Source of the DNA: Spirochaetia bacterium
GTDB lineage: Bacteria; Spirochaetota; Spirochaetia; UBA9216
NCBI GenBank assembly: GCA_963675665.1
Contig: OY776510.1
Span: 2,272,001-2,336,000, forward strand
Reading direction: 5' to 3'
Length of the DNA stretch: 64,000 bases
Shown here: positions 4,963-44,826 of the stretch, in pieces
Position numbering within the stretch: the first letter of the stretch is position 1
Layout of the letters: each line of letters begins with the position of its first letter
Program-made: the position numbers and the translations under genes
The notes under the pieces: generated by a model
Databases searched by the model: none
What the model was told of the DNA's origin: nothing
Seen by the model: only the letters and a program-made list of their open reading frames with translations

Positions 4963-5086
4963 ATAATCGACAGTATATTATTGTTTTATTTATTTCAAGG
5001 CAAATCGGTTGCCGAATAATCTTCAATATCAGAATATTTTTTTTTCTTGGCTTGCAATCAATATTAAAAAAGTTCAAAATTGACCT

Positions 5087-10799: not shown

Positions 10800-10861
10800 T
10801 ATTTAACATGGACGAAGAACAAGAAATTACCAAAAGATCACAAGAATCTTATTGTTTATTA

Positions 10862-10975
10862 TCGGATATTATGGGAGAATACTTCACCCATCAATGGAAG
10901 TGAGGTGAGAATCCTCCGCGGACCCGCCACTGTAATCGGATGCAGCTGCATCCGAAAGCCAGGTTACATTGATTT
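10862..10975 (+). ncRNA. Cobalamin riboswitch
   Basis: GGAAgtgaGGTGagAaTCC...GCCACTGTAA, then a stem (TCGGATGCA/TGCATCCGA), then AAGCCAGG; lies upstream of the B12 ABC transporter. Boundaries are approximate. Confidence 0.9.
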
Positions 10976-11077
10976 TCGATAATAATTTGCGTTGACTTCG
11001 AGGATTGAGTCGCAATGCCTGATAATCTTCCGTTTACAGGTTAGCCGAGCTCCTCTCTTTGAACAAAGGAAGGATGA

Positions 11078-24220: not shown

Positions 24221-25222
24221 TTACATTTTGCCGTAATTATTTCTATATAAAGGAGATTTTTTCTCGATAAGTTTTGTGATGAGCCTACTGAAAATTCGGA
24301 TTGCCGGTAAAATCGGACGCAGTTTTTTTACAAGGATCTCCTGCCAGTTCCGTATGGAATGCTGCTGGTAATCAAGTAACGACTGCACTTCAGCTGTGTC
24401 GTACCAGTCAAGGTAATAAGAGTCCGGATCCTGTGAATAAAGGGCCGGATTGGGTGTTTTAAGAAAAAGCGGATGAAACATCGCTTCTGCAAAATCCTCA
24501 GTATGCATACGGCAGCCGTTCTGTTCTCCGCCGGCAATAAAACCTTTTTTACCGCAGATTTCCCCGCTGCCCCGGAGGTTCTCACACGCAGCAACCAGTG
24601 CAATTGCTACATCAAGATCAACTACGGCTTCGCAGCGGGCATTAACCGGTATTTCAAACAGGAGTTCCGTCATGTTCAGTACGGCTTTCAGGTTAAGTAC
24701 CGTAGGAAGAACTGCCGCAGGTCTGAGAATGCAGTAGTCAAGCCCTGATGATTGGATAACTTCTTCAGCTTCAGCCTTGCTGACTGAATAGTTGTCGGTA
24801 GGCGACAGTTTGTCATCTGGGCTGACCGGCGGCTTTCGGTTTTGCGTAGACCCCATCACGCTTGCCGAAGAAACAAAGACAATCCCCGTTTTACCGCCCG
24901 ACTGTTTTAGCGCTTTTACAAGGTTTTCAGTACCGCCAAGGTTAACGGCCCTGCACAGTTCAGGCAGTCTGTCGCTTGCGGGAGGCAGAATCGACGCCAT
25001 ATGAATAACGGCATCCTGGTTTGCTGTGGCGGCGGAAATATCGTCATATTTTCTTATGTCGCCGAAAATGACTTTTACGCCTTTTCTTGCATATTTACGG
25101 GCAAGTCTGAAGGTGCGGTCGGTTCTTACTTCAAATACGGAAACACTGTGGCCGCGTTTCAGGCATTCTTCAATTACAACTACTCCTATACTGCCGAATC
25201 CGCCTGTTATCAGGATTTTCAT
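24221..25222 (-). CDS. NAD-dependent epimerase/dehydratase (extended SDR)
   Basis: KILITGGFGSIG, GDIR, VSSAS, YSVSK. Confidence 0.9.
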   Translation of the reverse strand: MKILITGGFGSIGVVVIEECLKRGHSVSVFEVRTDRTFRLARKYARKGVKVIFGDIRKYDDISAATANQDAVIHMASILPPASDRLPELCRAVNLGGTENLVKALKQSGGKTGIVFVSSASVMGSTQNRKPPVSPDDKLSPTDNYSVSKAEAEEVIQSSGLDYCILRPAAVLPTVLNLKAVLNMTELLFEIPVNARCEAVVDLDVAIALVAACENLRGSGEICGKKGFIAGGEQNGCRMHTEDFAEAMFHPLFLKTPNPALYSQDPDSYYLDWYDTAEVQSLLDYQQHSIRNWQEILVKKLRPILPAIRIFSRLITKLIEKKSPLYRNNYGKM

Positions 25223-25277
25223 GGTAGGGCCTCTTTTTATCATTATACTTCATTAAAGGCGGTTTTGAGAAATTTTA

Positions 25278-25325
25278 TGGCCGCGAATTACACGAATGTG
25301 TATCGGGTAAGGGCAGGAAGAGATT
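25278..25325 (+). repeat. Direct repeat copy A (48 bp; partner at 44670-44717)
   Basis: TGGCCGCGAATTACACGAATGTGTATCGGGTAAGGGCAGGAAGAGATT, 44/48 identical to copy D. Confidence 0.9.
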
Positions 25326-25474
25326 GGAAGAGGGGGTATCGATACCATATTCTGGTTTTTAATAAGTATGAGTAAAAGTGTAATTTGTAATTTTTATGGA
25401 TCGGGCATATAATGATTTTTAGGCCCAATAATAAAATTATAGTTTCTGTATTTTTAAAAATGGTTTGGTTTGGA

Positions 25475-26497
25475 ATGAAAAGGGCTTATGCAAAATCAGA
25501 GAGATTAAACAAAATCCAGCTCTTATTGTCGTCAATTGAACGGGGCATTACACGAAGTGAATTGGCGAGAAGGCTTAATGTAAGCAGAGCCACAATATCC
25601 CGTGATATAGCAGAACTCAGTCATGATTATCCTGTGATTGAGGATGAAGAAACCGGAAAACTTTATGCCGATAAAATTTCTCTTTTGGCTAATCTTCATT
25701 TTAATGCAGAAGAAATTCAGGCTATGCACCTTGCCTGCAGACTTCTTGGCCGGAAAGTGCGATTTAAGTACCCTTCAGCTTCTTCTGCACTAAGGAAGCT
25801 TGGAATCGCTCTGGAACATTATGCTTCTCCGCTTGCTTCTTCAATTACTTCGACTGCTGAATTATTCGAAAACCATGAACCGGAAAAACAGACAGAACCG
25901 GCAGTTATGGTAAAAACAATAACTGAAGGTATAGTCCGGGGTCTTTCAATCCGTTTTGAGAGATACTCAAGAAGAGAGAAGATCTGGAAGGATTGTTTAT
26001 TCAATTCTTATTGCATTGAACCGTATGCCGAGGGGAATTCGCTTTATCTTGTGGGTTTTGATGAATGCTCTTCAGAACTAAGAACCATTAAATTTGAATT
26101 GATAAGAAATATTATACTTACTGACAGGTCTTATAGTATTCCGTCTGATTTTAATGCAAACGAATATTTTAAAAACAGCTGGGGTATCTGGACTTCATTA
26201 TGTGAAAGCCAAAGGGTTGTTTTAATGTTTTCAGCGGCTGTAAAGCAGCGGGTGCTTCAGACGGAATGGCACTATAGCGAAGAGATTGAGAAGCTTCAGG
26301 ACGGCAGAATAAAATGGACCGCTCTAATTGCCGAACCTGTTGAGATGCTTCCTTGGATTAGAGGTTGGGGTGCTGATGTGGAGGTAATAGAGCCAGAAGG
26401 TTTAAAACAGATGATTATTGATGATATCAGGGCTTGTTCAGATTGTTATGGGTTACGGATGTTAAGTGATAATGATGAAAAAAAACAGAATTTATAA
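25475..26497 (+). CDS. WYL-domain transcriptional regulator (wHTH-WYL-WCX)
   Basis: RSELARRLNVSRATISRDI HTH, LYLVG...RTIKFE WYL core, WIRGWGADVEVIEP WCX. Confidence 0.93.
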   Translation: MKRAYAKSERLNKIQLLLSSIERGITRSELARRLNVSRATISRDIAELSHDYPVIEDEETGKLYADKISLLANLHFNAEEIQAMHLACRLLGRKVRFKYPSASSALRKLGIALEHYASPLASSITSTAELFENHEPEKQTEPAVMVKTITEGIVRGLSIRFERYSRREKIWKDCLFNSYCIEPYAEGNSLYLVGFDECSSELRTIKFELIRNIILTDRSYSIPSDFNANEYFKNSWGIWTSLCESQRVVLMFSAAVKQRVLQTEWHYSEEIEKLQDGRIKWTALIAEPVEMLPWIRGWGADVEVIEPEGLKQMIIDDIRACSDCYGLRMLSDNDEKKQNL

Positions 26498-26513
26498 GTT
26501 TACCCTGTCAGCA

Positions 26514-26546
26514 GTTTCATTAGGTGAAACGGGTCGTGAGTAAAAT
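26514..26546 (+). promoter_or_regulatory. Putative WYL-regulated promoter for the cas operon
   Basis: Palindrome GTTTCA-N5-TGAAAC, then 10 nt, then TAAAAT (-10-like), immediately after the WYL gene. Confidence 0.5.
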
Positions 26547-26565
26547 AAAATGGAGGTGTTGAGTC

Positions 26566-26593
26566 GGCCGCGGATTAAGAGGATTTTCACGGA
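26566..26593 (+). repeat. Direct repeat copy B (left of GxxExxY)
   Basis: GGCCGCGGATTAAGAGGATTTTCACGGA, 23/28 identical to copy C. Confidence 0.8.
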
Positions 26594-26665
26594 AAGGGAA
26601 AAAGGCTGATACATATGATTAATAGTTTTTATACGATGTTTTTCCTTCAGTTTTTCATTTTACAA

Positions 26666-26740
26666 TCCGTCTTTAGCCTGTCAAGGGCCGGGCAAGTTAA
26701 ACGGCTGTGCCGTTTAACCCTTGACCGGCTAAAGAGCGGA
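26666..26740. repeat. Long hairpin (about 30 bp of stem) upstream of GxxExxY
   Basis: Arms TCCG/CGGA, TCTTTAGCC/GGCTAAAGA, GTCAAGG/CCTTGAC and GTTAAACGGC/GCCGTTTAAC; TGT loop and a 9-nt bulge. Confidence 0.85.
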
Positions 26741-26776
26741 GTCTGTATGTTCTGAAAAATTTCAGGAGGTACAGTT

Positions 26777-27139
26777 ATGGTACATGAAGAGTTAAGTTAT
26801 AAAATTATCGGCTGTTGTATGGAGGTTCACAGTGGTCTTGGAGCCGGTTTATTGGAACAGTGTTATCACAATGCATTGTTTTATGAAATAAAAACGGCCG
26901 GGTTGCAGGTTGGGTACAATGTTCCTTTTACGGTGAAATACCGGGGTGAGGTGGTCGGAGAATATTTTGCTGATCTGGTTGTTGAGGGCAAGGTAATTAT
27001 TGAGCTTAAGTCGGTAAAAAGGCTTGGTGATGAGCATGCGGCGCAGGTTATCAACTATCTGCGTATTTCAGGCTGTCGTCTGGGGCTGCTGGTTAATTTT
27101 CAGGGCTCAAGCCTTGAGTGGAAACGGCTGGTTGTATAG
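26777..27139 (+). CDS. GxxExxY protein (PD-(D/E)XK nuclease fold)
   Basis: GLLEQCY signature, ADLVVEGKVIIELKS, AQVINYL, GLLVNF; AGGAGG RBS. Confidence 0.95.
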   Translation: MVHEELSYKIIGCCMEVHSGLGAGLLEQCYHNALFYEIKTAGLQVGYNVPFTVKYRGEVVGEYFADLVVEGKVIIELKSVKRLGDEHAAQVINYLRISGCRLGLLVNFQGSSLEWKRLVV

Positions 27140-27163
27140 GGCGTTTTCTGGCCGGGTTTGTTG

Positions 27164-27191
27164 GGCCACGGATTTGGAGGATTAGCACGGA
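27164..27191 (+). repeat. Direct repeat copy C (right of GxxExxY)
   Basis: GGCCACGGATTTGGAGGATTAGCACGGA; its continuation TGTATAGGGTTAAGGG...GAGATT resembles the tails of copies A and D. Confidence 0.8.
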
Positions 27192-27244
27192 TGTATAGGG
27201 TTAAGGGTGGGGGGGAGATTGTGATAAAGATCTGGAGGTTGTAG

Positions 27245-29557
27245 ATGAATGAGATTAAATTTTATGCACATTCTACAAAAATGGGTGATAAATCTGATTG
27301 GCAATTACTTGAAACTCATCTTTCTGAAGTTGCTCAGTTAACAGAAAAATTCTCTGAGAGTTTTGGAGTCGGAGAGTGTGGTCGAATCGCTGGTCTTCTT
27401 CACGATTTAGGTAAATACACAAAGTCATTTCAGGGATATCTGGAACGCAGTCAGCGAGGCGAAACTGTAAAACGTGGTGAAGTTATTCATGCTTTACAGG
27501 GAGCAAAGTATGCAGAACAAATAATTTGCGATAATGTACTTTCGGATATAATTGGTAATGTCATCGCGTCTCATCATGGAGGCTTGTTTGACAATATTTT
27601 TGATGGGGAGAGGACGTTATCAGTAAAGACAGATAAAGGTGAAGATAGTTTACATTATGCAGAAGTTATAAATCACTTCAGTCCTGAAATTAATGAAATA
27701 AAAGTGAAAGAGGAAATCCTTAACTTTTGTAAAACAATTCAACGAAGAGGGTTAAAAAGTCCTTCTTTTATGCTCCATTTTATAACAAAAGCAATTTATT
27801 CGTGTGTTGTGGATGCAGATAGATCTAACAGTGCGGGGATAGAAGTCAGCGATGCAATTCCAAATTGGGAAAAGTCAATTCAACAATTAGAAACTTATCT
27901 TGAAGCTTTTTTAGCGATAAATGATATCGATAAAATTCGTACACAAATATCAGAGCAGTGCCAAACAGCTGGCAGAAAACCGCAGGGAATTTATACTTTA
28001 TCCGTTCCGACAGGCGGCGGGAAAACATTATCTAGCATGCGTTTTGCTTTAGAACATGTTAATGCACATAACCTTAAAAGAATAATCTATGTTATTCCTT
28101 ATTTATCTATTCTTGATCAAACTGCAGAGAAATTACATGAAGTTTTTTCTGATGAAAGAGATGACTTAATTCTTGAGCATCATTCAAACATCGAACCACC
28201 TGAAGATGATAATGAAGAAGACGAATACCGTTTACTAACTTCAAGGTGGGATAGTCCAATTATTTTAACTACAATGGTTCAGTTTTTAGAGACAATATAC
28301 AGTAATAAATCTTCAAAGCTTCGTAAATTCCATAATATGTCAGATTCGGTTTTAATCTTTGATGAGATACAGGCCTTGCCGATAAAATGTATCCATCTTT
28401 TTAACGATGCAATTAATTTCCTGCAAGTAGCCGGCGGATCAACAATCTTACTTTGTACAGCGACTCAGCCCCATCTCCATATGGTGGACCGTCCGGTGCT
28501 GTTGGCTGAGAACCCGGATATCGTAAATATTACAGCGGAAGAGTTAAGCGTTTTCGAGAGAGTTCATATCAAAGACATTACTCAAAAGGTAATGGATTAC
28601 GAAGAAATAACCGAACTTGTTCGTACTCAAATTGAACAGGAAAAGAGTACCCTTGTAATTATGAACACGAAAAGGGATTCCCTCGCTTTATATGAACAAT
28701 GTAGGTCTATTGATTGTGAAAGAGCATTGTTGACGACTGATCTTTGCCCAGCCCATCGTTTGGAAGTACTTAGACTGTTACGTAATAATCTGGCCCCTGA
28801 ATCAAAGCAAGTAATATTATGCATAAGTACACAACTGATTGAGGCCGGTGTAGATGTGTCGTTTGATTGTGTCATTCGTGCAGAAGCGGGTATGGACAGT
28901 ATTATTCAGGCAGCCGGGCGTTGTAATCGAAATAAAGAAAATTCAATACCTCAGTCGGTATTTGTTGTTGATGTTCAGGGGGAAAAGCTTTCCCGGCTTC
29001 CAGAAATAAAGGAAGCAAAAAGTGTAACAAAAACAGTATTCCACGAAAAGCAGGGAGCTGATTTACTAAGTCCTGATGTTGTGAATTTATTCTATAAGTA
29101 TCATTTCTATGATCAGAAAAATAGAATGGATTATGACACTAAGGATGGTAAAACAACCGTCTATAATTTATTAAATATTAATAGCTTAGGAATGGGCGCA
29201 TACAAGGATCGAAATAGTGAAAAACAATACAACGGGTTGCCTTGTGCTTTTAAAACTGCTGCAGAAGAATTTTCTGTAATTGGGGGAGGTCAAATCGGTA
29301 TTGTTGTTCCTTATGGTGATGCTATGGATCTTGTAGATGATTTTATACAAAGTTTTAAACCTAAAAATAAAATACGCATTCTTAAGCAGTTGCAGAAATA
29401 TACGGTTTCTGTCTATTCGAATAAATTAGAAAAACTTATACAAGAGCGTGCAATCAGGCCTATAGAAGATTCTTTCTATCTTTTAGATTCAGAATATTAT
29501 GATTCTGAGGAGAAGGGATTATTAATAAATTCAAAATTTTCCTTTTTGTATGTATAG
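27245..29557 (+). CDS. cas3: CRISPR-associated HD nuclease/helicase Cas3
   Basis: YAHS, LLHDLGK, SHHGG, VDADR, PTGGGKT, EHHSN, FDEIQ, TATQP, QAAGRCNR. Confidence 0.96.
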   Translation: MNEIKFYAHSTKMGDKSDWQLLETHLSEVAQLTEKFSESFGVGECGRIAGLLHDLGKYTKSFQGYLERSQRGETVKRGEVIHALQGAKYAEQIICDNVLSDIIGNVIASHHGGLFDNIFDGERTLSVKTDKGEDSLHYAEVINHFSPEINEIKVKEEILNFCKTIQRRGLKSPSFMLHFITKAIYSCVVDADRSNSAGIEVSDAIPNWEKSIQQLETYLEAFLAINDIDKIRTQISEQCQTAGRKPQGIYTLSVPTGGGKTLSSMRFALEHVNAHNLKRIIYVIPYLSILDQTAEKLHEVFSDERDDLILEHHSNIEPPEDDNEEDEYRLLTSRWDSPIILTTMVQFLETIYSNKSSKLRKFHNMSDSVLIFDEIQALPIKCIHLFNDAINFLQVAGGSTILLCTATQPHLHMVDRPVLLAENPDIVNITAEELSVFERVHIKDITQKVMDYEEITELVRTQIEQEKSTLVIMNTKRDSLALYEQCRSIDCERALLTTDLCPAHRLEVLRLLRNNLAPESKQVILCISTQLIEAGVDVSFDCVIRAEAGMDSIIQAAGRCNRNKENSIPQSVFVVDVQGEKLSRLPEIKEAKSVTKTVFHEKQGADLLSPDVVNLFYKYHFYDQKNRMDYDTKDGKTTVYNLLNINSLGMGAYKDRNSEKQYNGLPCAFKTAAEEFSVIGGGQIGIVVPYGDAMDLVDDFIQSFKPKNKIRILKQLQKYTVSVYSNKLEKLIQERAIRPIEDSFYLLDSEYYDSEEKGLLINSKFSFLYV

Positions 29558-33159: not shown

Positions 33160-33993
33160 ATGTCTGATCAAATCGCCGTCTTTCAGGGAAAATCGATCCG
33201 TAAAACCATCTATCAAAACGAATGGTGGTTTTCCGTTGCTGATGTTGTCGAAATCTTGAGCGACACTAGTGATCCCAAACAGTACATCAAGAAAATGAGA
33301 CAACGGGACCAGGAACTGAACTCCAAGTGGGGTACAATTTGTACCCCACTTGAATTGTTAGCTCCCGACGGGAAGAAAAGGAAAACCAACTGCGCCAACA
33401 CTGAAGGAATATTCCGCATCATCCAGTCCATTCCCTCTCCCAAAGCGGAACCATTCAAACGCTGGCTGGCCAAAGTCGGATACGAACGGATACAGGAAAT
33501 TGAAGATCCTGAACTGACCATCCGGAGGATGAGGGAAACCTACATCATTAAGGGATACAGCGAAGAATGGATTGAAAAACGTCTTCGTGGAATGGAAGTA
33601 CGAAAGGACCTGACGGAAGAGTGGGACAAGAGGGGAGTTAAGGAAGAAAAGGACTATGCCATCTTAACGGCGGAGATCAGTAAAGCGGCTTTCGGTATGA
33701 CGCCGGAACAATACAAACACCATAAAGGTCTGGATAAACCCTCTGAAAACCTTCGGGACCATATGACCGATCTTGAGCTGATCTTTACCATGCTGGGAGA
33801 AGCCTCGACAACCGAAATAGCCCGAAACAGAGATGCTCAGGGTTTTGAGCAAAACAAAAAAGCTTCCAGAGAAGGTGGAGAGGTTGCGGGAAGTGCAAGA
33901 AATGAACTGGAAAAGCGTTCGGGGCGTATGGTGGTATCCAAGAACAACTATAAGGGAATTCCTGAAAAAGAAATGAGGAAAAAACTGGAATAA
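33160..33993 (+). CDS. BRO-N domain DNA-binding protein
   Basis: EWWFSVADVV, RIIQSIPSPKAEPFKRWLAKVG, NLRDHMTDLEL. Confidence 0.9.
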   Translation: MSDQIAVFQGKSIRKTIYQNEWWFSVADVVEILSDTSDPKQYIKKMRQRDQELNSKWGTICTPLELLAPDGKKRKTNCANTEGIFRIIQSIPSPKAEPFKRWLAKVGYERIQEIEDPELTIRRMRETYIIKGYSEEWIEKRLRGMEVRKDLTEEWDKRGVKEEKDYAILTAEISKAAFGMTPEQYKHHKGLDKPSENLRDHMTDLELIFTMLGEASTTEIARNRDAQGFEQNKKASREGGEVAGSARNELEKRSGRMVVSKNNYKGIPEKEMRKKLE

Positions 33994-33996
33994 GGC

Positions 33997-34089
33997 ATGT
34001 ATACTAATGACTCGGACTTGCTCATGATCTACGCCCCGCGATATTACATATTCTGTCCCAGTCAATGCGCGTTGATTCATATAGAGTAG
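33997..34089 (+). pseudogene. cas4: Degenerate 5' remnant of a second cas4
   Basis: Translates MYTNDSDLLMIYAPRYYIFCPSQCALIHIE*, aligning to the intact Cas4 MFDEEDLVPISALQHVLFCERQYALIHLEQ, with TAG at the Gln position. Confidence 0.8.
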
Positions 34090-34135
34090 GCTTGAACAGT
34101 TTTAATGGGTACATACGTTTAAATTCTTTTCCTAA

Positions 34136-34192
34136 TTGACGCCAACTCTATTGGCGATTATTATAATATATGCCAACTCTATTGGCGATTAT
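34136..34192 (+). promoter_or_regulatory. Internal promoter with two identical 21-bp palindromic operators
   Basis: TTGACG-N17-TATTAT; GCCAACTCTATTGGCGATTAT at 34141-34161 and 34172-34192, each containing GCCAA-N5-TTGGC. Confidence 0.7.
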
Positions 34193-34220
34193 AAGCATTT
34201 TCGACTATTTAGGGGAGTTT

Positions 34221-35402
34221 ATGAGTGAGTACAGGAACCGTGCTATTGATTTAAGGGAGTTGCTTGCCGAAAGGTCGCTTTTTTTACTGGGACCGAGGCA
34301 GACGGGGAAGTCTTCTTTTGTACGGGAAGAATTATCCGGAGTTCCTGCGCTTTCATATAATCTGCTTGACAACAGTCTTCGTTTCAGGCTTACAGCTGAT
34401 CCGTCATATATGCGTCAGGAAATTGAGGCAAAGGGGTTTAGAGACTGTGTTGTTTTCATCGACGAGATTCAGAAGTGTCCGTTTCTGCTGGATGAGGTGC
34501 ATCTTCTTATCGAGGAAAGGGGTGTTCGGTTTCTCCTTACCGGCTCAAGCGCCAGAAAGCTCCGAAGCGCTGGGGTAAATCTTCTGGGTGGAAGGGCCAG
34601 AACCAGGGCTATGCATCCATTTGTTTATCCCGAAGTAGCCGGAACGGATTTTTCCCTTGAACGGATGATGAACAGCGGCCTGTTGCCTCCACACTATCTG
34701 TCTTCAAACCCTGTCGAGGATCTGGATGCTTATGTGAATACTTATCTTGCGGAAGAGATAGCGGCTGAAGGCGCTTCGAGAAATATTCCTGCTTTTGCAC
34801 GATTTTTGCAGGTTGCAGCAGCTACTAATGCGAGAATGATTAATTATACCAATGTGGCAGGCGATGCCCAGGTGCCCCGGCAGACTGTGCGGTCATGGTA
34901 TCAGATTTTAACCGACACGCTTCTTGGTTATGAACTGTCTCCGTATACCAGGACTGTAAAGAGAAAACCGATAGAAACTGCCAAGTTTTATTTCTTTGAT
35001 ATCGGAATTGTCAGAATACTGCGAAGACTCCCCGCGGTTGTTCCGGAAAGTTCCGATTTCGGCGAGTTTTTTGAGCATTTTATTTTTATGGAACTGCGTG
35101 CGTGGATTGATTACCGTAAACCAAATACCGGATTGTCCTACTGGCGTTCAAATACGGGTTTTGAGGTTGATTTTATCCTGGACAATAATATTGCCGTTGA
35201 GGTTAAATCGGCGACTGTTATCCATGACAAGCATTTGAAGGGACTTAAGGCTTTGAGGGAAGAGGGGATAATAAGCAGATACTTTCTGGTCTGCAGGGAA
35301 CCAAGGCAGCGTCTTGTTGACGGTATCCATATAATGCCGTGGCAGGATTTCCTTGAGCGCCTGTGGTCTGATGAGTTTTCCAGGGATTTGGGGAATGTTT
35401 GA
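34221..35402 (+). CDS. AAA+ ATPase (AAA_14) with DUF4143 and a C-terminal PD-(D/E)XK-like motif
   Basis: GPRQTGKS, FIDEIQ, LTGSS, KFYFFDIG, FEHF, YWRS..EVDF..AVEVKS; GGGGAG RBS before ATG 34221. Confidence 0.9.
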   Translation: MSEYRNRAIDLRELLAERSLFLLGPRQTGKSSFVREELSGVPALSYNLLDNSLRFRLTADPSYMRQEIEAKGFRDCVVFIDEIQKCPFLLDEVHLLIEERGVRFLLTGSSARKLRSAGVNLLGGRARTRAMHPFVYPEVAGTDFSLERMMNSGLLPPHYLSSNPVEDLDAYVNTYLAEEIAAEGASRNIPAFARFLQVAAATNARMINYTNVAGDAQVPRQTVRSWYQILTDTLLGYELSPYTRTVKRKPIETAKFYFFDIGIVRILRRLPAVVPESSDFGEFFEHFIFMELRAWIDYRKPNTGLSYWRSNTGFEVDFILDNNIAVEVKSATVIHDKHLKGLKALREEGIISRYFLVCREPRQRLVDGIHIMPWQDFLERLWSDEFSRDLGNV

Positions 35403-36054
35403 CGAGGAAGATCTTGTCCCGATTTCAGCTTTGCAGCATGTTTTATTCTGTGAGCGCCAGTACGCGCTGATCCATCTTGAGCAGTTGTGGGAAGAGAACC
35501 TTTTCACCGCGGAGGGCAGGATCCTGCATGAACGTGTGGATATTGAGCATCACGAGTCGCGTAGAGATTTTAAAGTTGAATACGGGATGGCTATAAGATC
35601 GCTTGAGTACGGATTAATAGGCAAGGCTGATGTAGTTGAATTCCGGAAAAGCAGTGATGGGGGTTATGTGGAAATTACTCCTGTTGAGTTCAAGCGGGGG
35701 AAAACCAAGACAGAGGACTGGGATAATATTCAGCTTTGTGCTCAGGCTTTATGTCTTGAAGAGATGTTTTTAATCGATATTCAATACGGGCAATTTTACT
35801 ATTTTCAGGAGCATAGACGGAGTGATGTGGATTTTTCGGGAGAGCTTCGGCGTAAAACCACAGATATGATTGACCGGATAAGGGCAATTAACTCACTTAG
35901 AAAAACTCCTGCTGCCGTATATAATAAAAAACGATGTGATTGCTGTTCTATTTCTGACATTTGTATGCCAAGGGCTTTAAACGGCGGAGGTAAAAATGTT
36001 TCAAAATATATGTCGATACAAACCAGCAAAACATTGGCGGATGGTACGGAATAA
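35395..36054 (+). CDS. cas4: CRISPR-associated Cas4
   Basis: ISALQHVLFCERQ, GKADVVEF, PVEFKRG, QLCAQALCLEEM, CDCCSISDIC. Confidence 0.95.
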   Translation: MFDEEDLVPISALQHVLFCERQYALIHLEQLWEENLFTAEGRILHERVDIEHHESRRDFKVEYGMAIRSLEYGLIGKADVVEFRKSSDGGYVEITPVEFKRGKTKTEDWDNIQLCAQALCLEEMFLIDIQYGQFYYFQEHRRSDVDFSGELRRKTTDMIDRIRAINSLRKTPAAVYNKKRCDCCSISDICMPRALNGGGKNVSKYMSIQTSKTLADGTE

Positions 36055-37554: not shown

Positions 37555-40500
37555 GTCGCTCCCTTCGCGGGAGCGTGGATTGAAACATTAAATGGATGTG
37601 TGAGAAGGCTGATGATTTTAAGTCGCTCCCTTCGCGGGAGCGTGGATTGAAACGTGATTACGCATTCTGCGGCTACTGTCATGACCGAGTCGCTCCCTTC
37701 GCGGGAGCGTGGATTGAAACAAATCTAAGGATCGGCTGTATTCCAATTTATAAGGTCGCTCCCTTCGCGGGAGCGTGGATTGAAACTTATACAATGTAAC
37801 ATATAAATAACCTTGCTCATGTCGCTCCCTTCGCGGGAGCGTGGATTGAAACAATCCGTCTGCTTTGAGCCTCATTATTAGCGCGTGTCGCTCCCTTCGC
37901 GGGAGCGTGGATTGAAACGATTTAAAGATTAAAGTATCGCTGAGAAAGGGAAGGTCGCTCCCTTCGCGGGAGCGTGGATTGAAACACAACATCAAGCCTC
38001 AGGATGATTCGTGGTCAAGTCGCTCCCTTCGCGGGAGCGTGGATTGAAACCATTTCCCGGCTTTCGCATCGGCTATTGAATCAGGTCGCTCCCTTCGCGG
38101 GAGCGTGGATTGAAACAGGATAACAATGCTACAAATGCCGGCTCGATTGAGTCGCTCCCTTCGCGGGAGCGTGGATTGAAACAGGATAACAATGCTACAA
38201 ATGCCGGCTCGATTGAGTCGCTCCCTTCGCGGGAGCGTGGATTGAAACAATTATTATCCACTTGGGGATTTTGCAGATGCAGAGTCGCTCCCTTCGCGGG
38301 AGCGTGGATTGAAACAGGCTCCCGCTGGAACAATGGTATGTAACGAGCCTGTCGCTCCCTTCGCGGGAGCGTGGATTGAAACATTTAATAAAATCTTGCC
38401 GTCCTAAACAAATAAACGTCGCTCCCTTCGCGGGAGCGTGGATTGAAACTCTTGTATATTTCTGACCTGTTAAATCATCTGTAGTCGCTCCCTTCGCGGG
38501 AGCGTGGATTGAAACCAGTTATGAGGATAATTTTACAACCCTTGCTGCAGGTCGCTCCCTTCGCGGGAGCGTGGATTGAAACACACGAGTACTGACAATG
38601 GCGGTTATTACAGTAGGTCGCTCCCTTCGCGGGAGCGTGGATTGAAACATCTCATCCCAAGATTTACAGAGTTCCCTTTCAAGGTCGCTCCCTTCGCGGG
38701 AGCGTGGATTGAAACAGTATAAACGTGGCTTTGGGTTTGTTGAGGCTGAGTCGCTCCCTTCGCGGGAGCGTGGATTGAAACAATCATACAGGTGTTTATA
38801 TCCCTACATTACCCGGTCGCTCCCTTCGCGGGAGCGTGGATTGAAACCCTCCAAAATTTCATCTAACGTCTCGCGAATAAAGTCGCTCCCTTCGCGGGAG
38901 CGTGGATTGAAACACACGTTTAAAGAGGGTGACGATGTATATGTCGGGTCGCTCCCTTCGCGGGAGCGTGGATTGAAACAAGTTCTCCGAATATAGGGAC
39001 CTCAAGAGATCCACGTCGCTCCCTTCGCGGGAGCGTGGATTGAAACTAATAGGATATGGCGGTATTGAGAATATATCATGGTCGCTCCCTTCGCGGGAGC
39101 GTGGATTGAAACCTCGGGTAGCATGTAGCAATGCCTGCCCCTGATAGTCGCTCCCTTCGCGGGAGCGTGGATTGAAACATGTACTGACTCTGGCGTCTCC
39201 CACGGATACCCAAGTCGCTCCCTTCGCGGGAGCGTGGATTGAAACAAAGTCCTTTAGCGTCTCTTTACGGAAAGTAACGGGTCGCTCCCTTCGCGGGAGC
39301 GTGGATTGAAACCCGCTATCCGGGCAAACGGTGGTTAAATCCCGGCGTCGCTCCCTTCGCGGGAGCGTGGATTGAAACATTTGGATTATAATCATCACAA
39401 TAGAAGTCGTTGGTCGCTCCCTTCGCGGGAGCGTGGATTGAAACTCACAAGCGATAAGCGTTGAGCCTGAGCCGAGAAAGTCGCTCCCTTCGCGGGAGCG
39501 TGGATTGAAACATCAACAGTCAGCATCCGCGCCTTATCAGACGAAAGTCGCTCCCTTCGCGGGAGCGTGGATTGAAACTCTGATCGCAATATGTAGTGAT
39601 GGCCCAGAGAGAGTCGCTCCCTTCGCGGGAGCGTGGATTGAAACAGATAAATCAGTTTTTTGCACAACTATTGAAACTAGTCGCTCCCTTCGCGGGAGCG
39701 TGGATTGAAACCCGGCAATAAGATAGGAAACCCCGGACTACCCGGGTCGCTCCCTTCGCGGGAGCGTGGATTGAAACATATTGATAGCCAAGACTAACTA
39801 ATTTCCCTATAGGTCGCTCCCTTCGCGGGAGCGTGGATTGAAACTTTCATTGGTTGAGACATGTTGTCTTTAGCGTCAGTCGCTCCCTTCGCGGGAGCGT
39901 GGATTGAAACGATATCTATCTGGTAAGTAGATCGATAAACACAAAGTCGCTCCCTTCGCGGGAGCGTGGATTGAAACCTTCTAATGCTGCGGCGCACCCG
40001 GTTGAACCTGAGTCGCTCCCTTCGCGGGAGCGTGGATTGAAACTTTGCTCATCTGTTAAAATCTGTCCGGATGGTAAGTCGCTCCCTTCGCGGGAGCGTG
40101 GATTGAAACATGCCGAGCTTTTAAGCCGGGACACCGAATATAAAGTCGCTCCCTTCGCGGGAGCGTGGATTGAAACCGACTACAGCAGGTACATATTACA
40201 TCCGCGCCGGAAGTCGCTCCCTTCGCGGGAGCGTGGATTGAAACCATTATGGGCCGAACTTACAGCCCGACCACGTAAGTCGCTCCCTTCGCGGGAGCGT
40301 GGATTGAAACTTTTTACCAAATCCTGCCAAGAGATTTGTCCATCGTCGCTCCCTTCGCGGGAGCGTGGATTGAAACTATTCATGAAACCCCCACTTTATC
40401 GTGTCTATAACGTCGCTCCCTTCGCGGGAGCGTGGATTGAAACGACCTCTACTACATTGTCAGTAAGTTCCAACCATCGTCGCTCCCTTCGCGGGAGCGT

Positions 40501-42898
40501 GGATTGAAACTTCCCTCTTGTCGATGTCAACTACATCATATCTGGTCGCTCCCTTCGCGGGAGCGTGGATTGAAACCGTATTCTTAAATTAAGTATTATG
40601 CGTGAAATTCGTCGCTCCCTTCGCGGGAGCGTGGATTGAAACCAAGCAAAAGATGTTTTGCTGTACAGGATGAGGAGTCGCTCCCTTCGCGGGAGCGTGG
40701 ATTGAAACACTGCATCATTGCCGTGGCAGCAAAGAGGAACTGGTCGCTCCCTTCGCGGGAGCGTGGATTGAAACGATGCAAAATGTAATAGTCTCGGAAG
40801 TACTACAAAGTCGCTCCCTTCGCGGGAGCGTGGATTGAAACGTTGCTTGATATGATGTCTAAAAACTCGATAGGCAGTCGCTCCCTTCGCGGGAGCGTGG
40901 ATTGAAACTCACCGACTGCTAACGTTGCACAGCTAATTCTCAAGTCGCTCCCTTCGCGGGAGCGTGGATTGAAACTGGTATAACGCAAGTATTGAATTAG
41001 GCAAACAAGTCGCTCCCTTCGCGGGAGCGTGGATTGAAACGGAATTACTCCGAAAAGTGGAAATGGAATAATAAAGTCGCTCCCTTCGCGGGAGCGTGGA
41101 TTGAAACCAGACCAGCAAACTGCAAACTAATATCCTCATCCCCTGAGTCGCTCCCTTCGCGGGAGCGTGGATTGAAACACGCTCACAATGTCGGACGAGG
41201 CACTTGTCAGGCGTCGCTCCCTTCGCGGGAGCGTGGATTGAAACACTATATCAGTACGGACACAGGAAGGGTTACGATTGTCGCTCCCTTCGCGGGAGCG
41301 TGGATTGAAACTTCTGTGCAATCAAAAGGCTTGAAAACTTCGTCGGTCGCTCCCTTCGCGGGAGCGTGGATTGAAACCAGTTCTTTTCCAAGATGATACC
41401 TGAAAATAAAGTCGCTCCCTTCGCGGGAGCGTGGATTGAAACGCTGCATCAAGCACGGCCTGAGTCATGCCGGTGTGTCGCTCCCTTCGCGGGAGCGTGG
41501 ATTGAAACTCAATTTGAGAGCAATGCGGCAAATGAAAGCGTAAGTCGCTCCCTTCGCGGGAGCGTGGATTGAAACATGAGGCAGGGAAAAGGCAGGGCTT
41601 TAAACTCAGGTCGCTCCCTTCGCGGGAGCGTGGATTGAAACTTCCCAGTAGTCAAGCACCTTTGCAATGTCGTCGGTCGCTCCCTTCGCGGGAGCGTGGA
41701 TTGAAACTTTAATCCATTTTTTAATCTGTTCGTTTGTCATAGTCGCTCCCTTCGCGGGAGCGTGGATTGAAACGCGGATATAATGACGTTAAACAGTATG
41801 TGCATTGGTCGCTCCCTTCGCGGGAGCGTGGATTGAAACTTCTTTGAAGCGTACAGGCATTATAACCCCGCTTGTCGCTCCCTTCGCGGGAGCGTGGATT
41901 GAAACAGAACTTGTATACCAGCTAAACGTTGGAGAATCCCGTCGCTCCCTTCGCGGGAGCGTGGATTGAAACACTTGTATTGCGAGTAGCGCCGTAGATT
42001 TAACTAGTCGCTCCCTTCGCGGGAGCGTGGATTGAAACTTGAGTATGTGGAAGCCAACCCCCCGGATGCTCAGGTCGCTCCCTTCGCAAGGGAGCGTGGA
42101 TTGAAACTTGATATAGTCAATTTCTTTCTGTAACAATGGCAAGTCGCTCCCTTCGCGGGAGCGTGGATTGAAACATACCATTCAACTAAAATATTTTCAT
42201 CTTCTACGTCGCTCCCTTCGCGGGAGCGTGGATTGAAACTCTTAATGAGTTTTTATTAAGCCGTTTTAAACAAGTCGCTCCCTTCGCGGGAGCGTGGATT
42301 GAAACCCAACTCCTCCGCGTGAATAAACAACCATAACAAGTCGCTCCCTTCGCGGGAGCGTGGATTGAAACATACAATACCCGCTGTCCATGTATTTATC
42401 ACCGTGTCGCTCCCTTCGCGGGAGCGTGGATTGAAACCGAATTACATATCTTTCACTCATACTGTTTTCCTGTCGCTCCCTTCGCGGGAGCGTGGATTGA
42501 AACATGCTGTCAAGTTTTAACTTTGCTGCTGCCAATAGTCGCTCCCTTCGCGGGAGCGTGGATTGAAACCCGGAGCGTTTGCCGCAATAGTTTCTGTGGT
42601 GAAGTCGCTCCCTTCGCGGGAGCGTGGATTGAAACGGAACTATTCCGAAAAATGGAAATGGAATAATAAGTCGCTCCCTTCGCGGGAGCGTGGATTGAAA
42701 CCTATAGTTTAGCGACGAATGCATAAAGTAATCTAGTCGCTCCCTTCGCGGGAGCGTGGATTGAAACCTTATCAAGATTAAACAGACCACACAAGCTGTT
42801 AGTCGCTCCCTTCGCGGGAGCGTGGATTGAAACTCAAGATCAATATCTGTACGGAGAGGGAACAAGGTCGCTCCCTTCGCGGGAGCGTGGATTGAAAT
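37555..42898 (+). CRISPR. Type I-C CRISPR array, 81 repeats / 80 spacers (manual count)
   Basis: 32-nt repeat GTCGCTCCCTTCGCGGGAGCGTGGATTGAAAC; spacers 33-39 nt; the terminal repeat ends GAAAT; one repeat has an AA insertion. Confidence 0.99.
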
Positions 42899-44668: not shown

Positions 44669-44669
44669 T

Positions 44670-44717
44670 TGGCCGCGGATTACACGAATGTGTATTGGGT
44701 AAGGGCCGGGAGAGATT
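44670..44717 (+). repeat. Direct repeat copy D (partner of 25278-25325)
   Basis: TGGCCGCGGATTACACGAATGTGTATTGGGTAAGGGCCGGGAGAGATT, starting 2 nt after the phosphoesterase stop. Confidence 0.9.
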
Positions 44718-44826
44718 TAAGAGAGAAATACCAGGGGGCCCTTTGGTTTTCTGAAATTCTCCTTAAAGTTTTTTCTAAACTTCATCTTTTATTGATTAAT
44801 AATCGCTTGCTAATTAATATTGAATT

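Follow-up and report, generated by a model that had tools for sequence, protein, structure and literature searches.

The window analyzed here is a 64,000-nucleotide (nt) stretch (positions 2,272,001 to 2,336,000 of contig OY776510.1, assembly GCA_963675665.1) of the single-contig, 5.15-Mb genome of a Spirochaetia bacterium (G000). It carries a gene for a WYL-type regulator, a type I-C cas operon and, between the two, a small unit built around a gene of the GxxExxY family. The first-pass annotation, made from the sequence alone, described this unit as a 598-bp arrangement of repeat, hairpin, GxxExxY gene, and second repeat, located between the WYL-linked promoter and cas3 and flanked by TGGAGGT on both sides. 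Pattern searches, family matches, and folding predictions recover the same arrangement in the same position, and TGGAGGT is found at 26551 to 26557 and 27233 to 27239. It belongs to a spirochaete subtype of the GxxExxY cassette, consisting of a repeat module referred to below as a head, a leader, an open reading frame (ORF), and another head, and it appears to be a single copy of a cassette with a wide distribution. Its components are as follows.

26566 to 26615, plus strand: head B, comprising the repeat B of the first-pass annotation (26566 to 26593) and a diverged G/A-rich tail.
26629 to 26782, plus strand: predicted structured leader RNA, with an anti-Shine-Dalgarno (anti-SD) sequence CCUUC at 26644 to 26648, a long stem at 26667 to 26739, the SD sequence GGAGG at 26765 to 26769, and the ATG at 26777.
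26777 to 27139, plus strand: GxxExxY (PDDEXK_3) gene, 120 amino acids, with a predicted minimal PD-(D/E)XK nuclease fold.
27163 to 27237, plus strand: head C, comprising repeat C (27164 to 27191) and a tail; a full head with an extra 10-nt word, located directly upstream of the cas3 ribosome-binding site.

The GxxExxY ORF matches the Pfam family PF13366 (E value, 7.6e-40; 136.4 bits at a cutoff of 22) and TIGR04256 (E value, 2.3e-42; 144 bits at a cutoff of 35). The latter family has eight matches in the genome, of which six are intact, one (c7) contains an in-frame TAG, and one (c8) is a C-terminal fragment; the paralogues are 43 to 68% identical to the window copy. Among 40 homologues, no variation is seen at G24, E27, Y30, D66, or K78, and the conservation of E76 is 90% or higher; the active site, E...D...ExK, is intact. 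The AlphaFold model has a predicted local distance difference test (pLDDT) score of 96.7, and Foldseek searches identify its best PDB match as the Cas4 protein SSO0001 (E value, 1.7e-4; template modeling [TM] score, 0.62 to 0.64), followed by lambda exonuclease and Hjc, which have the same type of catalytic motif. Unlike Cas4, the GxxExxY protein is limited to a core of ~120 residues and has no match to the Cas4 family model PF01930 in a Pfam scan, and the operon has its own cas4 gene (35353 to 36054), whose product does match that model. A sequence search of PDB chains gave no match, nor did a comparison with PHROGs, and matches to PADLOC are at chance level (best E value, 0.007). By family and predicted fold, the GxxExxY product is a minimal PD-(D/E)XK nuclease. 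In the public genome collection, the closest GxxExxY loci are those of Spirochaetia genomes; the comparisons below use 80 homologous GxxExxY loci from spirochaetes and other phyla and 33 counted leader-type units.

Two more heads are found in the window without a cassette.

25278 to 25343, plus strand: solo head E1, located upstream of the regulator gene and followed by neither a leader nor a GxxExxY gene; it comprises GGCC, CRCGRAT words in phase, and a G-rich tail.
44669 to 44735, plus strand: solo head E3, which begins right after a metallophosphoesterase stop codon and lies upstream of a sulfotransferase gene.

All four heads share one orientation and align as a single module that consists of GGCC, two or three CRCGRAT-like words spaced ~10 nt apart, and a G-rich tail. 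Inspection by eye agrees with the earlier count of 23 identical positions out of 28 between repeats B and C, and a degenerate B/C pattern matches only 26566 to 26593 and 27164 to 27191, both on the plus strand and 598 nt apart (0 of 100 shuffles). The gene-less related copies already noted at 25278 and 44670 are borne out by the alignment of E1 and E3, which are 92% identical across 48 nt (25278 to 25325 versus 44670 to 44717). A profile built from E1, E3, and C finds only those three sites in the entire genome at an E value below 0.01 (nhmmer E values of 8.9e-14, 1.3e-14, and 1.4e-08, respectively), and the genome contains about 10 phased word clusters. By itself, the 6-mer CACGGA shows no enrichment (13 copies in the window versus 21 expected); the unusual feature of these repeats is their phased arrangement only and not this word as such. 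Most heads begin within ~90 nt past the stop codon of a co-oriented gene. A sigma-54 reading of the head start was rejected as a misfit at E1 and E3 by eye. As a potential target duplication, the TGGAGGT pair is a 7-nt match that resembles a ribosome-binding site, and the corresponding pair in the congener G002 is purine-rich and only loosely similar.

The link between the gene and the repeats extends well beyond this genome. At three homologous loci (L021, L023, and L024), the same head module abuts the 5' end of the leader, and in the closest homologue (L018; 83% amino acid identity), it follows the ORF, as head C does in the window. The head word GCCRCKRA was sought within 300 nt upstream and 150 nt downstream of the leader-type units (background, 0.026 per 300 nt per strand). 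It is found upstream on the gene strand in 16 of the 33 units, versus ~0.85 expected, and on the opposite strand in 5; downstream, it is present on the gene strand in 4 units and in the inverted orientation in none. Only four leader-type units have heads on both sides (the window unit, its paralogue c6, L018, and the G002 orthologue), so the direct-repeat bracket is a real but minority layout. In other phyla, lineage-specific words form 8- to 11-nt phased arrays right beside the gene, with inverted arms on both sides. In a comparison of flanks, at least eight 5-mers are common to both flanks in the inverted sense at 13 loci and in the direct sense at 5. The phased-array finder has a false-positive rate of 18% per flank on shuffled sequences (145/800), and an exact 6-mer enrichment test, which has weak power at spirochaete loci, gives P values of ≤0.01 at 24 of the 80 loci, mostly from other phyla.

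In this genome, ~140 nt before the start codon are common to all seven full paralogues, and nothing further out is shared. The 154-nt window leader is predicted to fold into a single rod of ~45 bp (-60.1 kcal/mol; z score, -6.07), and none of 200 shuffled sequences folds as well. The CCUUC sequence at its 5' end pairs with the SD sequence GGAGG, and a local hairpin that adjoins the SD sequence provides a second means of burying it. RNAalifold analysis of nine leaders identifies 29 pairs, 17 of them with changes on both sides; 93.8% of the alignment cells can pair (92.3% in helix 1), versus 39.8 to 57.1% when the partners are slid by one to three columns, and none of 500 shuffles reaches the observed level of covariation. 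A covariance model (R1), applied to the genome with 150 of 1,052 first-look candidates scored, finds all seven full paralogues at an E value of ≤1 (window copy, 1.5e-26); its only other matches are three weaker ones on the opposite strand of paralogue leader sites. At an E value of ≤0.01, R1 matches 26 of the 80 homologous loci (25 from spirochaetes and 1 from a Bacteroidales metagenome-assembled genome), 2 of which duplicate loci already counted in relatives; 638 of 720 cells pair at these 26 loci. This count is used here in preference to that from a regular expression for the leader, which flagged 40 loci, including false positives (e.g., L050 and L058). In a second group of leaders, pairing breaks down in the lower stem at an internal loop rich in pyrimidines.

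The leaders contain 40 G.U pairs versus 9 A.C pairs, so the hairpin points to a sense-strand RNA rather than to a DNA hairpin. The median probability that the SD sequence is unpaired is 0.006 in the 33 leaders versus 0.379 in a control set of 150 long ORFs from the same genome that are preceded by a GGAG box, and 17 of the 33 leaders fall below the 5% quantile of the controls. Judging from this covariation and predicted folding, the leader is a conserved sense-strand RNA that sequesters the ribosome-binding site. Nothing in Rfam reaches the gathering threshold between 26450 and 27300 (best match with an E value of 0.95 and 11 bits, against a threshold of 61) or at four other loci; with 33 examples, the leader is a candidate for a new cis-regulatory RNA.

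In REP/RAYT systems (repetitive extragenic palindromes [REPs] with REP-associated tyrosine transposases), an HUH Y1 gene of the IS200/IS605 TnpA-like type is accompanied by inverted REP doublets in tens to hundreds of copies. The first-pass annotation suggested that the GxxExxY protein may likewise recognize or spread its repeat; in a strict version of this idea, it would do both, and across the genome. The cassette does share with REP/RAYT the association of a single gene with lineage-specific short repeats, which here crosses phyla, the existence of gene-less copies (E1 and E3), and the lack of a classical transposase or long terminal repeats. However, the strict REP/RAYT reading fails three defining features. 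The enzyme has a PD-(D/E)XK rather than an HUH Y1 fold (only PF13366 was matched). The repeats on the two sides of the gene are direct and not inverted. They are also few rather than dispersed, with ~10 word clusters and three full E-type heads, the latter all in the window. In addition, the supposed REP-like DNA hairpin is an RNA leader attached to the gene, and no gene-less copies of it were found in the genome with R1 among the 150 of 1,052 first-look candidates that were scored. A REP/RAYT system in the strict sense is therefore improbable.

The best-conserved unpaired letters of the leader have a different reading, TTGACA-15/16-TAnAAT, on the opposite strand. In the window, they form the following site.

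26657 to 26684, minus strand: outward promoter-like site in the leader, TTGACA-16-TAAAAT (11/12).

The best opposite-strand site lies at the homologous place in 29 of the 33 leaders. The promoter score reaches at least 9 on the opposite strand in 20 leaders, versus a single leader on the sense strand, where no sigma-70 promoter was found inside the leader, and 5.5% of shuffled sequences. Part of the opposite-strand box doubles as stem sequence. The predicted antisense RNA would begin near 26650 and would overlap the anti-SD sequence. This putative outward antisense promoter is a lead. A 40-codon ORF at 26492 to 26614 on the minus strand, which reads through head B and would lie on such an RNA, is probably spurious.

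Upstream and downstream of the cassette, the locus contains the following features.

25412 to 26497, plus strand: WYL-type regulator gene (PF25583 WCX, 2.8e-12; HTH_11, 2.4e-09; the WYL domain itself is unmatched).
26514 to 26530, no strand assigned: palindromic operator-like box, GTTTCA-5-TGAAAC, before the cas promoter.
26541 to 26551, plus strand: two overlapping copies of a -10-like TAAAAT (GTGAAA-16-TAAAAT, 9/12; a consensus match only).
27245 to 29557, plus strand: cas3, the first gene of the type I-C cas operon.

The operon continues with cas5d, csd1, cas7, cas4, cas1, and cas2 up to 37379 and is followed by an array of clustered regularly interspaced short palindromic repeats (CRISPR) at 37689 to 42833. 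The predicted start of the cas transcript lies a few bases before head B, and the promoter-like site has the same geometry as in the metagenome contig L101. A 19-mer version of the palindromic box (26514 to 26532) is found in 12 metagenome contigs (L101 to L112). It precedes a type I-E-like Cas3 in the congener G003 and a 919-residue Cas3 homologue in L101, with no cassette between, and in L105 the sequence before it is the same as in L101. Because the box stands before cas3 in G003 and L101 with no cassette between them, the window cassette is placed within the 5' untranslated region of its type I-C operon. A scan of 25200 to 27400 found no terminator-like site, and a metagenome search with the regulator protein found no relative. 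In nine metagenome contigs, seven of them with soil-type identifiers, the 19-mer box stands before a different, conserved gene start.

Heads lie on both sides of the regulator gene and in front of cas3, which might suggest that the neighboring WYL-type regulator binds to B, C, E1, and E3. However, the conserved element that G003, L101, and L105 have in common with the window is the palindrome at 26514 to 26530 and not the heads; the spacer between the WYL-type gene and cas3 in G003 has no head, and heads accompany GxxExxY copies at loci where no WYL-type gene is seen. This explanation is very improbable.

Comparison with relatives shows variation in the presence and position of the cassette. 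G002 and G003 belong to the same genus as G000, and their regulators are 59% and 72% identical to that of the window, respectively, at the amino acid level. In G003, the WYL-type regulator gene, the operator, and the gene for the I-E-like Cas3 are found with no cassette between them; the window Cas3 and the G003 Cas3 are 24% identical over 156 residues. An empty WYL-cas3 site of the kind sought by the first-pass annotation thus exists, but the single repeat expected in it is missing. G003 does have a unit of head, leader, and GxxExxY gene, but it lies upstream of the regulator gene, at the position that the solo head E1 takes in the window. In G002, heads B' and C' surround a leader and an ORF at the same site as in the window; after them come a few codons resembling those of cas3 and then the gene for a type I-F Cas1. 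A contig from another study that is ~94.5% identical to the window (118 differences and 5 gaps over 2,141 nt) is colinear with it from 25000 to 27140 and departs right after the GxxExxY stop codon, with the start of a head visible in the next 30 letters. In the three congeners, then, the cas modules behind one and the same regulator gene are of three different kinds. The breaks fall at the cassette or at its downstream head. As far as these sequence comparisons go, gene content changes at the heads between relatives.

Other comparisons are less informative. A 165-nt contig from read run X3 fits 26476 to 26564 exactly and continues with 76 unlike letters. The same run does not cover several stretches, including 26616 to 26918, but a stretch inside the regulator gene is equally uncovered, which makes these gaps uninformative. 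Epimerase-anchored synteny, used for an empty E1/E3 site, yielded other matches that are only 50% and 35% identical. Several copies of the cassette are decaying, namely c7 (the in-frame TAG), c8 (the fragment), and the G002 copy, which has two small insertions: its leader and its ORF are each interrupted by a copy of a ~55-nt element.

A ~55-nt element resembling a miniature inverted-repeat transposable element, with no Rfam match, is also found between the head and the leader of the paralogues c5 and c6. On the G000 contig, it occurs at 2630138, 2656340, 2645864 (minus strand), and 23340 (minus strand). The related copies in the G002 locus (L004) lie at about 1861 to 1919 and 1441 to 1499; one of them interrupts the leader stem and the other the ORF.

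The reading favored here, with a probability of roughly 0.45, combines these features: the unit is a shuffled, probably selfish cassette whose translation is locked and whose heads serve as junctions. Overall, the cassette behaves as a horizontally shuffled, probably selfish element and not as a core host gene. The nuclease mRNA would be made together with, or ahead of, cas3 and would rarely be translated because the ribosome site is locked. Release would need a trigger, and the candidates are cutting of the rod by RNase III and an antisense RNA that covers the anti-SD sequence. The heads would be the sites of gain, loss, or swapping of cassettes and neighboring modules, and if two direct heads recombined, the product would be a solo head of the E1 or E3 kind. 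We infer that the nuclease most likely drives this process by acting on the heads, much as a homing enzyme or one that initiates recombination would. E1 and E3 together bracket a 19.4-kb block that runs from the regulator gene through the cassette, the I-C cas genes, and the CRISPR array to the metallophosphoesterase gene.

Parts of this scheme have counterparts in known systems. In IS10, the transposase start is subject to fold-back inhibition and the outward promoter pOUT produces an antisense RNA. The start region of the cassette is similarly sequestered by an upstream complement, and the predicted outward promoter-like site lies just inside its 5' end, where its RNA would cover the sense 5' end. 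Unlike IS10, the cassette has neither a transposase nor terminal inverted repeats, and its SD lock is present in every sense transcript that covers the leader, not just in read-through ones. The ORF-bearing intervening sequences of 23S rRNA (e.g., in Coxiella and Leptospira) have a long stem that encloses the ORF. Here, too, a small stand-alone ORF is found in a host transcript with a long stem of the kind cut by RNase III, but the cassette lies outside rRNA genes (none was found in the window), its stem is wholly upstream of the ORF, and the protein family is different. Integron cassettes are punctuated by attC sites, imperfect inverted repeats that fold, and have an adjacent IntI integrase gene. 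The resemblance consists in single-gene units marked off by a repeated site, co-oriented arrays, and variable gene content; in contrast to attC, the heads are phased direct words, and general ORF scans, which did not include a systematic search, revealed no integrase. It is conceivable, if rather doubtful, that the cassettes constitute a new class of mobile elements without a transposase, in which a Cas4-like minimal nuclease would act on the heads, the element would restrain itself in an IS10-like manner through both the SD-locking leader and an outward antisense promoter, and recombination between heads would also move large host modules, such as the 19.4-kb block between the nearly identical E1 and E3.

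The gene neighborhoods of the other copies bear on a host role. Three of the seven full copies are located directly upstream of, and co-oriented with, defense operons, which start with or include cas3, hsdM, and QueC-like/SMODS/SLATT genes, and the remaining full copies adjoin HipA, Uma2, or type I restriction-modification (R-M) genes. Four GxxExxY copies are interspersed in a defense island at 5,000 to 31,000 of the G000 contig, together with type I R-M genes (hsdR, hsdS, and hsdM), ImmA/IrrE-DUF4411, DUF433-PIN_10, and QueC-like, SMODS, SLATT, and HicB genes. Among the downstream ORF fragments at 24 other leader-type loci, 16 have a Pfam match, and 8 of these 16 are toxin-antitoxin, abortive infection (Abi), or R-M proteins. 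Copies are also found beside housekeeping genes, such as PFOR, cupin/methyltransferase, and CysN-like genes.

Such neighborhoods, along with intact ORFs, conserved catalytic residues, and an SD lock that suits a dangerous enzyme, would agree with domestication: the gene would belong to the host and encode a stress or anti-phage nuclease under tight control, immobile and co-induced with defense operons, with the leader as its lock and the heads as ordinary regulatory DNA. This interpretation has to contend with the lack of any PHROGs match or meaningful PADLOC match, the decay of 2 of the 8 copies in this genome and of the G002 copy, the copies next to housekeeping genes, and the variable presence of the cassette between congeners. 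The neighborhood in itself is no proof of a defense role, because such islands collect mobile DNA anyway. Domestication appears unlikely.

Several observations weigh against the selfish-cassette reading. Intact, conserved ORFs and a position before defense operons fit a host function equally well. The empty site in G003 contains no head at all, and an exact pair of empty and filled junctions was not found among the relatives compared. The paralogues are only 43 to 68% identical and none is recent, so no movement has been caught in the act. Heads are few, as the ~10 clusters and the three full E-type copies confined to the window indicate, and no recombinase was seen among the ORFs scanned, in which no dedicated recombinase search was made. 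The spacer of the opposite-strand site is 15 to 16 nt in all 29 homologous sites, which is short for sigma-70. Transcription poses another difficulty. In this genome, the upstream neighbor is co-oriented with the cassette in all six copies where it has Pfam support (one further copy is ambiguous); at other loci with a Pfam-supported upstream ORF fragment, only 3 of 13 are co-oriented and 10 are divergent. A rule that cassettes ride on the transcript of the upstream gene was therefore discarded. As co-orientation fails elsewhere, transcription must often start from a promoter that belongs to the cassette, and no such promoter was found.

The need for a promoter that follows from the 10 divergent neighbors is what gives some appeal to the notion that each head is a portable module with promoter or operator function, bound like an iteron by some DNA-binding protein, and that the nuclease is unrelated to it. 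Each of the four heads precedes a plus-strand gene start or leader (E1, the regulator gene; B, the leader; C, cas3; E3, the sulfotransferase gene), the head is the only sequence shared upstream of the leader, and the ~10-nt spacing sets its words on a single face of the helix. However, no sigma-70-like -35/-10 pair is visible by eye in the heads, and a promoter scan of 25200 to 27400 placed no plus-strand site inside any head. Head starts after stop codons would be just as compatible with a 3' element or with preferential insertion, and the inverted two-sided arms in other phyla are left unexplained. Like domestication, this notion is unlikely, and a selfish cassette with heads as junctions is the reading retained here.

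GxxExxY (PDDEXK_3) is a large family found in many phyla, with no known function, and its partnership with phased repeats provides concrete candidate substrates for the enzyme. If the heads are indeed recombination junctions, they would help explain the exchange of CRISPR-Cas types behind a conserved regulator gene. The family is entered as being of unknown function in a published catalogue and receives a passing mention in a survey of reverse transcriptases. The first-pass annotation knew of no description of such a unit, and a search of full-text literature, which did not extend to subscription journals, likewise found no published account of a cassette of GxxExxY and heads.

Three other features of the window deserve mention. 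Genes for a Bro-N domain protein and an AAA_14/DUF4143 ATPase are located between cas7 and cas4 of the I-C operon (33160 to 35402). The 19.4-kb block between E1 and E3 is embedded among polysaccharide-type genes, with those for UDP-glucose dehydrogenase and an epimerase on the left and the sulfotransferase gene on the right. Finally, positions 10850 to 10990 contain a cobalamin riboswitch (Rfam ID RF00174; 45 bits).

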